Program-made: the position numbers and the translations under genes | Source of the DNA: Spirochaetaceae bacterium | Lineage (GTDB): Bacteria > Spirochaetota > Spirochaetia > DSM-2461 | DNA: 64,000 nt | NCBI GenBank assembly: GCA_965224705.1 | Contig: OZ245056.1 | Location: forward strand, 2,144,001-2,208,000 | Reading direction: 5' to 3' | Part shown: piece by piece, positions 58,573-64,000 of the stretch | Position numbering within the stretch: the first letter of the stretch is position 1 | How the letters are laid out: each line of letters starts with the position of its first letter | The notes under the pieces: generated by a model | Databases searched by the model: none | Seen by the model: the letters and a program-made list of their open reading frames with translations, nothing else | What the model was told of the DNA's origin: nothing

Positions 58573-61500
58573 ATGAAAAAAATTACCCTTCTACTGATGC
58601 TACTAATCATCGCCGTACTAACCCTACCGGCCCAGGAGAAAGTGGCCCTTGTTATCGGCAACAGTGCCTACGAGCACGCGGCCTCGCTTAAAAACCCGTT
58701 AAACGATGCCCAGGACATCGGAGCCACGCTGGAAAATCTGGGCTTCTCGGTTACCCGGGCCCTGGATGCCAGCCGGGGAGAAATCCAGCAGGTGGTGGAC
58801 CGCTTTCAGGAGGCATCTTCCCGAAGGGGAACCAAGGTGGCCCTGTTCTACTACTCCGGCCACGGGGTGGAATACGAGGGAAGCAATTACATAATTCCCG
58901 TGAATGCGGAGATCCGCAACGAGTATGAGCTGGTGGACCAGGCCTTTAGCGCAGACCGGATTGTGAAGGCCATGGACCGGAACCGGGCCGCCTTTAACCT
59001 GGTGATACTGGATGCCTGCCGGGACAATCCATTTTTTTCAAGCCGAAGCGGCAGCCGGGGCCTGGCCTCGATGAGCGGGGGAGGGCGGAGCATGATAGTC
59101 TTTGCCACCAGTCCAGGCCAGGTGGCCGCCGATGGTTCGGGCCGCAACAGTCCGTTTACCAAAGCCTTCATTGAGCATGCCGCCACGCCGGGTTTGGAAG
59201 TCACCGCCATGATGAAGGCCATCAACGGGACGGTGCAGAAACTCACCAGCGGCAGACAGGTGCCCTGGTACACAACATCTTACTCTGAAGACGTGTTTTT
59301 AAGCGCAGCCGAAGAACTGACCGGCGCGGATGGCCTTGTGGGCAGGGTGAACCGGGAAATCGCCGCCCTGGAAGCGGCCATTGCCCAGAGGGAGAAGGCC
59401 ATTGCCTCGGCCCGGACCGAGGCGGAAAAGCGGCTTCTGGAACTGGAACAGCGGCGGGCACGGGCCGAGGAAAGTGCCAAAAGGATGCAGGCCGAACAAC
59501 TGGCGGAAATCGCCCTTCGCGCCAAAGATTTCCTGCAGCAGAAGGAATCGGAAGATGCCCTCCGTGCGTCAATGGAAAAACAGCTCTCCGCCCAGAAAGC
59601 CGCGCTCACCGAGCAGGCAAAGGCACGGCGTGGAGAGCTTCAGAAGCTGAACGAAAAGAATGCAGCGGAGGCGGGAATATGGTTACGGCTTGAAAAAATC
59701 GTCAGTGTAAAAAATGCGATAGCCGAAATAGGCCAACGCTTTGATGCGGCCATTGCCAAAATGGAAAAAGAGGTGAACGCTCTCTACGATCAGCAGAAAA
59801 CGGCGGTGAAGGTCGAAAACCCCAAGGAACCCTTTGAAACCCAGGAAGAATACGAGACCCGTATCCGGGGAATGGAGAGGAGCATCGAAGGCAAAAGAAG
59901 GACCGAATTAAACCGCCGCCGCCGTGAGTTCAACAATACCCGCAGCACGGAGTTGGCGGACTTCCAAAAACAGCTTCCCGAACTCAAAAAAGATCTGGAT
60001 GGCCGCCGGTTTACCCTTGATTTCTCTGCCACGACGGTGGAGGTGTCCCCATTTAATGCCAAAACCAAGCAGTTTCCCATGGAAGTAAGACCGACCGACC
60101 AGCGGTTCAAATTTGCCGTACCGGTGGCCCACACCCTGAAGGCCTCTGGCTTTGAGGCCATGAAGAAGGCATACTATCAGGTGTATCAGGCCGACCAGAC
60201 CGGCGGATTGGCCGGAGAGCTAACCTACACGGCCAAAGAGGCCCATCCCGACATCTGGGTGCTGGAGGCTAACCGGGCCCGGGTGGTGAATCTGCTGGAA
60301 AACGATGCGGAAGTCGTCCGAACGGTGACGCCGGAGGAGCAGATGCTGGTGAGCACGGCCGGGGGCAAGGTAGACACTCTGGCCGCCGCGGTGATGCTGG
60401 AATCGCAGGGTGGACGGGCCAATGTGAGTGTCAACGGCAAACCGGCGGGCACCACGCCGGTGCTCTACACCCTGCCGGACTATGCGGGAACGGTGAAGGT
60501 GGAATACAGCTGGGGTGCATCCCAACGGGTGTTCTCCATCGTCCTGCATTCCGGGTTGAATGCTCCTGCCATTGCCTCCACCCAGAGACTTGAGCGGCGC
60601 TGGGGCAGGGCCGACACCGCCCGGCTGGGGCTGGCCGTAGAGGGCCTGTCCCCGGCCAACAAAAGTAAAACCGAGAATGCTACGCCAAGTTTGAGCTGGA
60701 ATGCCGCCTCTGGGGCGGCGGGTTACCAGGTGCAGATGGCAAGTAGCCGGGGAGGGCTGGAAAAGGCTTCGCCTGTTGGGGTTGCCTCTCGCCGAAGAAG
60801 CCGTGGAGCCTATACCCCTGCGGAACCGCTGAAAAGGAATCAAACCCACTACTGGCGGGTGAGGGCCGTGGATGGAAACGGGCATTTTGGAGCATGGAGT
60901 GCCGTTGAGTCAATCGCCGTCGTGCCAATCGCCGTCGCGTCAATCAATGTACATCCAGTTCCTGTTCCTGATGGCTATGTGCTGGTGGAGGGGGGGACGT
61001 TTCGGATGGGGAGCCCTTCCAGTGAGGATGGCCGAGATGGCGATGAGAAACAGCATAGCGTAACGGTGGGATCGTTTTACATGAAGGCGACCGAGGTAAC
61101 GCAGAAAGAATGGCGGAAGGTGATGTGGAGGAATCCTTCCCGTTTTAGGGGGAATAACCGACCGGTGGAGAATGTGAGCTGGTTTGATGCGGTGAAGTAC
61201 TGCAATGCCCTGAGCAAGAGGGAGGGGCTGACGCCGGTGTACCGGATAAATGGAGATAGTGTAACGGCGAACTGGAGTGCGGACGGGTACCGCTTGCCGA
61301 CGGAGGCAGAGTGGGAATATGCGGCCCGGGGAGGGAGCCAATCACAGGGGTATAAGTATGCGGGAAGTAATAATGTGGATGAAGTGGGTTGGTACGGTGG
61401 TAATTCCGGGAGTAGCCCGGTGAAGGACAAGAAGGCCAATGAGCTGGGGCTGTATGACATGAGTGGGAATGTCTGGGAATGGTGCTGGGACTGGTATGGG

Positions 61501-61677
61501 GATTATTCAAGCGGGAGTCAGAGAGACCCCAGAGGGCCGTCGAGCGGGTCGTACCGGGTGTACCGCGGCGGCAGTTGGTCCGGCAACGGCAGGGACTTGC
61601 GGTCTGCCAATCGCAGCGACTTCTCGCCAGGTAATAGCAGCAGCTATCTGGGCTTCCGCCCCGTTCGGAGGACGTAA
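58573..61677 (+). CDS. Secreted caspase-like (peptidase C14) protein with coiled coil, PEGA-like, FN3-like and C-terminal FGE-sulfatase domains
   Basis: Signal peptide; KVALVIGNSAY, LKNPLNDA, YYSGHG (His), ILDACR (Cys), NSPFT; V.VNG...GTTP; SW...YWRVRA; YRLPTEAEWEYAARGG, NELGLYDMSGNVWEWC, RGGSW, GFR. Confidence 0.93.
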   Translation: MKKITLLLMLLIIAVLTLPAQEKVALVIGNSAYEHAASLKNPLNDAQDIGATLENLGFSVTRALDASRGEIQQVVDRFQEASSRRGTKVALFYYSGHGVEYEGSNYIIPVNAEIRNEYELVDQAFSADRIVKAMDRNRAAFNLVILDACRDNPFFSSRSGSRGLASMSGGGRSMIVFATSPGQVAADGSGRNSPFTKAFIEHAATPGLEVTAMMKAINGTVQKLTSGRQVPWYTTSYSEDVFLSAAEELTGADGLVGRVNREIAALEAAIAQREKAIASARTEAEKRLLELEQRRARAEESAKRMQAEQLAEIALRAKDFLQQKESEDALRASMEKQLSAQKAALTEQAKARRGELQKLNEKNAAEAGIWLRLEKIVSVKNAIAEIGQRFDAAIAKMEKEVNALYDQQKTAVKVENPKEPFETQEEYETRIRGMERSIEGKRRTELNRRRREFNNTRSTELADFQKQLPELKKDLDGRRFTLDFSATTVEVSPFNAKTKQFPMEVRPTDQRFKFAVPVAHTLKASGFEAMKKAYYQVYQADQTGGLAGELTYTAKEAHPDIWVLEANRARVVNLLENDAEVVRTVTPEEQMLVSTAGGKVDTLAAAVMLESQGGRANVSVNGKPAGTTPVLYTLPDYAGTVKVEYSWGASQRVFSIVLHSGLNAPAIASTQRLERRWGRADTARLGLAVEGLSPANKSKTENATPSLSWNAASGAAGYQVQMASSRGGLEKASPVGVASRRRSRGAYTPAEPLKRNQTHYWRVRAVDGNGHFGAWSAVESIAVVPIAVASINVHPVPVPDGYVLVEGGTFRMGSPSSEDGRDGDEKQHSVTVGSFYMKATEVTQKEWRKVMWRNPSRFRGNNRPVENVSWFDAVKYCNALSKREGLTPVYRINGDSVTANWSADGYRLPTEAEWEYAARGGSQSQGYKYAGSNNVDEVGWYGGNSGSSPVKDKKANELGLYDMSGNVWEWCWDWYGDYSSGSQRDPRGPSSGSYRVYRGGSWSGNGRDLRSANRSDFSPGNSSSYLGFRPVRRT
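61549..61677 (+). other. Candidate DGR variable region (VR)
   Basis: S-x-RV-x-RGGSW-xxx...RSANR-xxx-P...xxx-LGFR with all x positions encoded by NNC/NNT; GGA-loop hairpin at 61711-61725. Confidence 0.55.
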
Positions 61678-61954
61678 ATTTTTGGTTTTTTACCTTTTTA
61701 CCTTTTGCAGAAGCACGGAGTGCTTATCTGATGCGCTAGCGGCATGGGGGAAGAGGAGCCGATGGCTCAACGTAAAAGCCGCCGTTAGGCGGCATTAATA
61801 AAAACTGCACGGGCGTAAGCCCGTGCTCCCTACCTGCCGGTGCCAGGCCGTTAGGCCCGGTGCCAGCAGGTTTTGTCCGCCATCGGCGGACCGAAATTTC
61901 CCGGGTTTTTGGGGCGTGTTCAATGCTGTTATTGTCACGATTCAATGATACCAG

Positions 61955-62211: not shown

Positions 62212-62338
62212 CAGGTTTTATTTCTCATCGCTAAAAAAGGAAACGGTTCGTAAGCGGCTCGGGCCGGGTGAAACGGGCGACGGCTGCGGGTTTCGCCGCA
62301 TCCCGGCACTTAACCGCCTGGCGGGAGAGCCGCCTAAA

Positions 62339-63129
62339 TCACCATGACTTCAGATACCCGTTGGCTACCTCAATATGATCGCCCTGCTGGGTAATAAGAT
62401 AGACACCCGCCTTTTTTGATGATTTGATCAGGGCTTCTCTGGCGACCATTGAAGCAATACCGAAATGGAGGGTGTGGTTACGGTATTGAGTGTATTTATT
62501 TCTAAAAAACTTCGTTTTCCCTCTGGCCAGTTCTTCAACCTGATCCGGATGGGCCTTGTACTTCACTTCCAGAATCATAACATGCGACCCGTTGATGAGC
62601 ATCATATCAAATTCCGGGGACTTATTGGACAGGCGCACATTGCTTTCAATGGAGTCAAATTGAATACCCGCCAGCTTCAATGTTTTGCTTACACTGCTGA
62701 AGAAAAATTCTTCGGCCGATTGTCCGGTGGTAAGGCCAATGGCCGCCAGTTGGGCTCCCACACTGTCCAATTTTCGAGAAGTTTCCTCCATCTGCTTGCT
62801 TGTTTTAGCCTGGAATTGTCGGAGTTTTTCCATCTCCATGTCAAATTTTTTACCGGATTCAGCCTGGGATTGGCGGAGCTGGTCAATCTGTTTGCTGGTT
62901 TCAGCCTGGAATTGTCGGAGTTTTTCCATCTCCATGTCAAACTTTTGGCCGGATTCAGCTGGGATTGTCGGAGTTTTTCCATCTCCATGTCAAACTTCTT
63001 GCCGGATTCGGCCTGGGATTGCCGGAATTTGTCCATTTCCATGTCAAACTTTTTACTGGATTCGGCCTGGGACTGGCGGAGTTTGTCAATTCCCTGGAGA
63101 ATATCCTGCATATTAAGTTCCCTGTCCAT
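62339..63129 (-). pseudogene. Coiled-coil-repeat protein with a C-terminal PD-(D/E)XK-like domain (DUF3782-like), split by a single-base deletion
   Basis: 54-bp repeats encoding SQAES.KKFDMEMEKLRQ; AEEFF, EFD....NG....ILEVK motifs; one repeat reads cccagctgaa instead of cccaggctgaa near 62958. Confidence 0.75.
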
Positions 63130-63259
63130 GAGAAAAGAATACTGAATGCCGGGGAATAAGTCAAAAGTATTTGTTGCGATTCACTCCGGGTGATGCCTTT
63201 GAATGCTGGAGCACTCAAGAATCCCTTGCATCCCTTAAGAAACAAATCCTTAAGTTCCT

Positions 63260-63981
63260 TCTCGTCCTTTTTCTCAATATCTTCAATGCCATAGTGGTGC
63301 CTGGTTCTTTCAACAGCGCAGTATATCCTGGGCCCCTTTCCATCGTTTTCGGCTGTGCTTGCGGCATATTCGCTGTAATACCCTGTATCAGTACAGACAC
63401 TCTCAATCTCTCTAATCTCCGCATCAACCGAATCGATAGCAGGATTAAGTTCTTTCTTATCATTGGTATGATTGGTTATATAGGATGCAAGAATGAGCAT
63501 GCTTCCCTCGGTGTCCACGACCGCCTGGGCATTATAGCATTGCTCATAGTCATTGCCGCCTCCACACCTCATAATTCGGCTCTCCTCATCGGTGAAATTC
63601 ACCTGCATCTTATCAGGGACACCTTCTTCATCCTGGGGTCTTCCAGGCTTGCGTCCCACCTTCTTGCCAGCTTTCTTCATCTCCTCCCTGTGCGCCGTCT
63701 GCTTCTCGTACTCTGCCTTCCTATCCTTTTTTTCCTGTTCATACCTTTCTTCTATTATTCTTCGGGCCTCTTTCAGTTTCTTCTTTCTTTCTTCTCGCCT
63801 TGAAAGCTCTTCAGGGATGGTCAAACCATCCTCCAGCGGTGTGCTATCGGCTTGTTCCGCTACCCACTCCCGGAGATCCGGGGGAAACAGCATGGGCGTT
63901 TCCCTGTCTACAGTGACAAATTTTGATGACATAACTTTGAGTGTAAGCGTTTTATGCATTCTCTTAAAGTCCGACAGGCTC
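63260..63981 (-). mobile_element. IS1182-family remnant (left IR plus internally deleted, 3'-truncated transposase)
   Basis: IR GAGCCTGTCGGACTTTAAG at 63981-63963; F...DR...MLFPPDLREW joined directly to AE.AD...DG..IPEEL.RRE.R; NFTD.ESRIM, YNAQA.VD, DTGYYS. Confidence 0.85.
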
Positions 63982-64000
63982 CATGGGCAGGGAACTGGCG

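Follow-up and report, generated by a model that had tools for sequence, protein, structure and literature searches.

A predicted exported caspase-like protease of a spirochaete whose lectin-type end is a variable repeat of a diversity-generating retroelement

The DNA analysed here (the window, 64,000 nucleotides) covers positions 2144001-2208000 of a single-contig spirochaete genome, and it contains a 1034-aa open reading frame (gene A, 58573-61677, plus strand, as are all of its features) that, from the ORF list and Pfam, has the order leader, caspase, helical stalk, Ig domain and C-type-lectin (CLec) domain of the formylglycine-generating enzyme (FGE) type, and is almost certainly a target of a diversity-generating retroelement (DGR). 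The host is marked as a spirochaete by the source names of homologues and by three matches to FlaA, a protein specific to spirochaetes, for which 14 control genomes gave no match. A Sec-type signal peptide is predicted at 58573-58635 from a hydropathy rule and visual inspection, its start being basic and its core hydrophobic, with no Cys of a lipobox; it is followed by a Peptidase_C14 domain (aa 23-239, 58639-59289; Pfam, E=4e-40) whose closest solved relative is MALT1. The His/Cys dyad, described as intact in an earlier note on this DNA, is indeed present in this domain as His97 (58861-58863) and Cys149 (59017-59019), and both residues are invariant in an alignment of 64 sequences. Judged by sequence, gene A encodes a C14 orthocaspase/paracaspase-like protease with its dyad intact and with presumed proteolytic activity, and we consider it probable that the product is both exported and active. 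A long alpha-helical stalk (about aa 258-478, 59344-60006) was seen in a single-sequence structure model of the mature protein, in which the mean pLDDT is 40 and only the stalk is mostly above 50; prediction of a caspase-domain homodimer gave a score of 0.41 (mark 0.42). An Ig/FN3-like domain (PF25788 in Pfam, aa 690-781, 60640-60915) and the FGE-type CLec domain (aa 801-1032, 60973-61668) complete the protein, the latter having TvpA (2y3c, E=1e-42) as its best solved match, in line with the FGE-type, TvpA-like fold named in the note. Identification of gene A as a formylglycine-generating enzyme (SUMF1) was rejected: the segment after the RGGS motif, where SUMF1-type FGEs carry their catalytic cysteines, is here the variable repeat (VR) and has no Cys.

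The main proposal of the earlier note, that the 3' end of gene A is a DGR target, was borne out when this end was searched against the genome by BLASTN: nine other places matched, among them a non-coding copy differing mainly at adenines, the template repeat TR1 (genome 2210369-2210486, plus strand; 33 adenines, 14 AAY codons, AAC-rich), beside avd and a DGR-type reverse transcriptase (RT) gene. The VR (118 nt, 61543-61660) aligns with TR1 ungapped and differs from it at 14/33 adenines and 2/85 other bases (Fisher p=1.3e-7), so that 14 of the 16 mismatches fall at TR adenines; the replacement letters there are 7 G, 6 T and 1 C, and both non-A mismatches are synonymous. With 18 variable codons, about 6e18 proteins are possible. 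From 61549 onwards, the final 42 codons agree with the note's quotation, and the 12 NNY codons that it derived from AAC or AAT all face AAC/AAT in TR1, 11 of them changed and one (61585) unchanged; two more AAT codons that are still as in TR1 (61609 and 61633) had escaped it. Codons ending in C or T make up 29/42 of the last codons and 60/140 of the preceding ones, and the compositional seam reported at the VR boundary is real (C 16% in 61100-61542 vs 31% in 61543-61660, Fisher p=9e-4). We regard it as almost certain that the 3' end of gene A is a DGR target.

The constant 3' end of the alignment (61646-61677) is a putative IMH, and TR and VR diverge beyond 61660; on its 3' side TR1 is flanked by the terminal part of a dispersed repeat, and an IMH* behind TR1 is therefore not definable. 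A hairpin with a GGA loop lies at 61711-61725, its first base being the 34th after the stop codon as the note had counted, in a 290-nt flank common to targets A, B and D, and its stems are longer at paralogous targets. A degenerate form of this hairpin has six matches in the whole genome, five of them immediately downstream of an end resembling a VR or TR and one, non-palindromic, elsewhere. Hairpins with a GRA loop are described in PMC4372165 (this and the other published sources are cited from their partially available text). BLASTN further detected a degraded vestige of the beginning of the TR together with its 5' flank (62233-62286, plus strand, 80% over 54 nt), which occupies the place behind gene A that TR1 has behind gene B. 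The note's statement that the window holds no RT, Avd or template thus stands for RT, Avd and the full TR, which all lie outside, and fails for this 54-nt vestige. About 12 copies of a 7-nt unit were seen upstream of TR1 (genome about 2210195-2210275) and only about two before a second template copy, TR2; the array is possibly a slippage tract near a TR promoter.

The cassette continues past the window edge (genome 2208000), where all of its parts are on the plus strand; the whole order is gene A, a transposase remnant (opposite strand), gene B, hairpin, 7-nt tandem repeat, TR1, avd and RT. Gene B (genome 2208082-2209902) encodes a 606-aa leader-caspase-CLec target (Pfam) with a VR that differs from TR1 at 18/33 adenines and 5/85 other bases. 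The avd gene (genome 2211243-2211599, plus strand) is intact (PF22296, bAvd E=6e-16) and its product has a pI of 9.4; a weak (E=4e-4), broken HRDC-like remnant lies between TR1 and avd. The RT gene (genome 2211596-2212753, plus strand) was recognised as DGR-type from the motifs GLPIGNLTSQ and YMDD and from a structure-database match of one RT half to 8ub7 (E=5e-26), presumably the RT of a Bordetella phage DGR, the next match being a group II RT (2e-15). In a tree, the DGR-type RT stands apart from two group-II-like RTs; 7/9 inner branches are open, and for this reason the RT is given no DGR clade. A contig scan with the RT half as query returned three distant loci only, and an Rfam search of the cassette gave just two matches, both far below the gathering score. 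A stretch of 40 nt behind the RT gene (genome 2212825-2212864) matches, at 88-90%, a segment of the sequence that follows targets B, C and D.

TR1 lies 4.7 kb downstream of the gene A VR and 2.4 kb past the window edge, and RT 5.9 kb from the VR. Gene A is thus cassette-linked, the first of two targets ahead of template, avd and RT on one strand, and its VR is the best match to TR1 in the genome; "remote", the term used in the note, was rejected on these distances and the shared strand, although gene A is borderline by the rule given in the available text of PMC7517822 (remote targets lie >5 kb from the RT). The transposase remnant between A and B (62955-64000, minus strand; weak DDE_Tnp_1 match in Pfam) has at 63967-63982 the same terminal repeat as an element found inside the RT. 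An ORF at 62339-63129 (minus strand), split by a frameshift, shows by eye tandem coiled-coil repeats and a nuclease-like tail, and a 198-aa part of it had no Pfam match.

The RT gene is interrupted by this element, an inverted-repeat sequence of 163 bp (genome 2211910-2212072, plus strand) present in 96 full-length copies in the genome. A second DGR RT (526.6-527.5 kb, behind an HRDC gene) is likewise interrupted, by another repeat, and ends after YMDD; it was rejected as a working cassette, being interrupted and truncated and having no A-rich template in BLAST searches. Three other RT matches in the genome are just about 25% identical to a DGR RT. Of 13 sequencing runs that hold the region (labelled mollusc metagenome or bearing coded names), five were examined and the RT junction was compared in four; four RNA runs and one other run hold small shares (0.10-0.14) of the region. 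In runs X1, X3 and X5, from two studies, contigs join across the RT site and skip exactly 165 bases, i.e. the element plus two; the comparison scores the intervening bases as not known, yet a 340-base contig at the junction is accounted for in full by 274 + 66 bases. Run X4 has the insertion and shows no differences. Close relatives therefore differ in whether they carry the insertion. In this genome the RT is very probably off, and since both DGR RTs are interrupted the repertoire is probably frozen. That the DGR is still active here, through an RT acting in trans or through loss of the element in part of the population, is quite unlikely: the intact avd, the uninterrupted junctions of X1, X3 and X5, and the trans activity reported for other systems (PMC10907252, in the text available) speak for it, and against it are the interrupted, truncated second RT, the low identity of the other three RT matches, the unchanged insertion in X4 and the broken HRDC-like remnant.

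Six other genes of the genome have VR-like ends (B, C, D, E, F and G2), and three of them (B, C and D) carry caspase domains, E, F and G2 being stand-alone CLec targets without protease. Compared with TR1, the VRs differ at 18/33 adenines and 8/85 other bases in C (2.908 Mb), 20/33 and 19/85 in D (1.54 Mb), 21/33 and 18/85 in E, 22/33 and 22/85 in F, and 22/33 and 19/85 in G2 after removal of a 3-nt gap; three further FGE genes have 3' ends without a TR-like VR. The alternative that the pattern comes from the usual divergence of FGE paralogues, or from gene conversion between them, has in its favour the 18-22/85 non-A mismatches of the older paralogues D-G; against it stands the A-rich non-coding template beside avd and RT (p=1e-7), which refutes this explanation for gene A and leaves it next to no probability. 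The second A-rich TR copy, TR2 (genome 1539360-1539243, minus strand), lies behind gene D in a region (L007, genome 1539360-1539180, minus strand) that has the TR 5' flank, yet is followed by a target-type end and hairpin. As template of gene A it was rejected (11/85 non-A mismatches vs 2/85 for TR1), and part of its 3' half has letters common to B and C and absent from A; TR2 may be a recombinant of TR and VR that remained when avd and RT were lost. We infer that a module of target, hairpin, spacer and TR was probably duplicated and its copies rewritten at different times, A last.

Gene A itself has a traceable origin. Residues 6-676 match one gene, G1, with 54% identity and residues 676-1034 match another, G2, with 56%, the switch of identity placing the approximate seam at aa 676 (60595-60605, plus strand). 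G1 and G2 adjoin with a 4-base overlap at genome 217.4-221.9 kb (217433-221862; L010:5434-9863), followed by an HRDC gene; the G1 product, predicted to be membrane-anchored, consists of leader, caspase and stalk and carries two hydrophobic helices at its C-terminus, and that of G2 resembles a lipoprotein and has Ig and CLec domains, its gene having an end like a VR. By these matches gene A is a fusion of two genes found adjacent elsewhere in the genome, and it has neither the lipid anchor of G2 nor the two C-terminal hydrophobic helices of G1. In another genome (G012, L023) a G1-like caspase gene precedes an Ig-Lcl_C gene, which has another lectin fold. In the gene A fusion, the G1/G2 pair and the G012 pair, the protease is thus coupled time after time, as pair or fusion, to a lectin-fold partner with a leader of the export type, and the pair of caspase-stalk and Ig-CLec proteins may be a general spirochaete surface module. 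A similar gene pair without caspase was seen by eye in G027 (L024).

Past diversification of the gene A VR is established. An orthologue (P0055, 1025 aa) has a caspase domain identical to that of gene A at 221/224 residues, and in the VR 12/18 variable codons differ vs 1/21 fixed ones (p=5e-5), all of its variable residues being reachable from TR1; the whole C-terminal half is below the caspase in conservation (Ig 81/106, 76%; CLec core 165/192, 86%). Among the contig variants listed on the gene A VR, 20/30 places are TR adenines (33/118 expected) and 27/37 variant rows within the VR fall at TR adenines, with paralogues and TR copies mixed in; only 6/37 of the listed variant letters occur in none of the paralogues and templates of this genome. 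Because of this mixing, and because most letters occur in the genome's own copies, the contigs do not establish hypervariation specific to the locus.

The architecture is spread among relatives. In the best 120 homologues of gene B, 75 (B included) have the caspase motif; a hydrophobic leader is present in 74 of these 75, and 74 retain the two dyad motifs. When 301 genomes of the class were compared with the alignment, 35 matched at 1e-100 and 13 (the present genome included) have one match spanning both domains. A full DGR-type RT was found in G012 only among the 16 genomes searched with the RT query; most carriers therefore seem to be orphaned, without the machinery, and the fusion would persist in them in the absence of diversification. 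Screening of 107 loci gave, besides the present genome, three (G012, L041 and L042) with an A-biased repeat pair and a full-length RT. Their targets are of the leader-caspase-CLec type: that of G012 differs from its template at 14/32 adenines and 1/97 other bases; the three tandem caspase-CLec targets of L041, the first of which is cut by the contig edge, at 9/32 and 0/91, 12/33 and 0/90, and 22/33 and 13/90; and that of L042, a 952-aa caspase-PEGA-FN3-CLec protein, at 17/38 and 1/83. The VR of a multi-Ig CLec gene in G009 (C1:163181-163298, L037) differs from the G012 template at 12/32 adenines and 0/97 other bases, and a search of G009 for a DGR RT found an RT fragment only; on this match we propose a recent loss or transfer of a DGR. 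In 50 caspase-CLec proteins, K, E, Q, M and W take 28/700 of the AAY-aligned positions vs 19% upstream, a depletion that is only suggestive, the control being poor.

From these data it is fairly likely, taking all parts together, that the end of gene A is the VR of a DGR whose template, avd and RT lie 5-7 kb downstream and that the tip of a predicted exported caspase-like protease selects a surface or a substrate. Following DGR rewriting as established in PMC5758913, RT-Avd would copy TR RNA into cDNA, making errors opposite adenines, and this mutagenised cDNA would replace the VR, guided by IMH and hairpin; in DGR variable proteins the variable residues form the CLec binding site (PMC5006420). 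The caspase-CLec protein would be exported by the Sec route, and a self-maturing protease would be tethered by its variable tip, across the long helical stalk, to an extracytoplasmic partner. This genome would keep a frozen set of variants, and relatives with an intact RT would still diversify.

Whether the tip serves targeting rather than triggering or self-release is about evenly balanced. Targeting is favoured because no effector or NTPase gene was recognised nearby, because short paralogues have no stalk, and because the orthocaspase MaOC1 processes itself without a trigger (PMC5756287). The same three points (for the first, no effector, STAND or MoxR/vWA gene beside A or B) weigh against a sensor-effector in which a multivalent foreign ligand would cluster the tips and switch on the caspase for envelope defence or signalling; Pfam scans of A and B, and inspection of the neighbours by eye from ORF lists, gave no NTPase, vWA or adaptor component. 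Such a ligand trigger, the reading suggested in the note, is doubtful, even though the protease domain has MALT1 as its nearest relative of solved structure, paracaspases are activated by dimerisation (PMC5756287), the gene A model shows a long stalk, and DGR targets have been proposed as antigen sensors, some of them periplasmic or secreted (PMC10907252). The caspase might instead serve self-processing only, maturing or releasing a variable adhesin whose tip directs no cleavage of other proteins. Orthocaspase self-cleavage is documented (PMC5756287), protease-free CLec targets (E, F and G2) occur in the same genome, and most clade-5 targets are presented as surface binders in the available text of 10.1101/2020.04.01.020958; a soluble gene A fusion lacking the G2 lipid anchor and the G1 helices has, however, no anchor from which it could be released, and we rate self-processing alone as improbable. 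A wider reading is put forward tentatively, as possible and by no means likely: a recurring class of adaptive exported proteases, in which several lineages rewrite the tip of a secreted caspase by DGR in an antibody-like manner, so that an animal-associated spirochaete would re-aim or trigger proteolysis as the surfaces of host, competitors or phages change, the polymorphic RT insertion splitting the population into diversifying and frozen lineages.

Related systems are known from the available text of several sources. The Treponema denticola DGR and its target TvpA (2Y3C; PMC4891356, PMC5006420) share with the present system a chromosomal location in a spirochaete, an FGE-type CLec fold that has the VR at its C-terminus, a set of seven targets in the genome (for T. 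denticola, in several strains), targets that are exported or, here, predicted to be so, an HRDC-type accessory gene, and gains and losses that leave orphan targets; TvpA-type targets are described as lipoproteins for the most part, whereas four targets here have an N-terminal caspase and a non-lipoprotein leader, and the present cassette has avd and an interrupted RT. Caspase-CLec DGR targets are already published from cyanobacteria (PMC7517822), with Peptidase_C14 fused to a DGR-varied CLec domain, both as cassette targets and as remote ones, and with transposases nearby. Those proteins are described as mostly cytosolic, one remote target being putatively non-cytoplasmic (AFW94847.1, Table S3 of that paper), in contrast to the hydrophobic leader in 74/75 caspase-bearing homologues here, and the present fusion can be traced to a pair of membrane-caspase and lipoprotein genes. 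The antigen sensors of Thiohalocapsa PB-PSB1 and the VMAP ternary systems (PMC10907252, PMC7159879) also combine a CLec tip with protease effectors and have duplicated and partial cassettes and MITE-like elements around DGR loci; they differ from the present case in that the host here is a spirochaete and no STAND NTPase, MoxR/vWA, TIR or adaptor genes were recognised. The metacaspase-FGE-sulfatase architecture of 2012 (PMC3501461) includes the two-domain fusion in 33/671 sequences, with N-terminal helices read as signal peptides, and took the FGE part as a sulfatase-modifying enzyme; here the FGE domain lacks the cysteines and is predicted to be a binding domain rewritten by a DGR, which corrects the older view of caspase-FGE fusions. 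No description of spirochaete caspase-CLec DGR targets was found in the literature as available, and the supplementary target tables of PMC5758913, PMC10907252, PMC11661182 and the Roux preprint may list them. New are a form that bears a leader throughout and whose templates were identified in four DGR loci, its counterpart split into two genes, and the polymorphism of the RT insertion. As a case open to testing the genome is complete, with template, accessory gene, RT and four or more targets that bear a caspase; it also supplies tips that vary naturally and a protein that occurs naturally in split form, and so gives a direct way to ask if a DGR-varied domain controls the attached enzyme, which the literature, in the text available, proposes and does not test; the natural on/off polymorphism of the RT could serve to measure the worth of diversification in a host-associated population.

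Other caspase-like genes of the genome were noticed by eye. At about 1508.5-1515.6 kb (minus strand) lie two near-identical leader-caspase genes with beta-barrel-like C-termini ending in Phe, possibly surface-displayed caspases, and just behind the decayed second RT locus (L009:16352-19114) a lipoprotein-like WD40 protein has a C-terminal caspase-like stretch.
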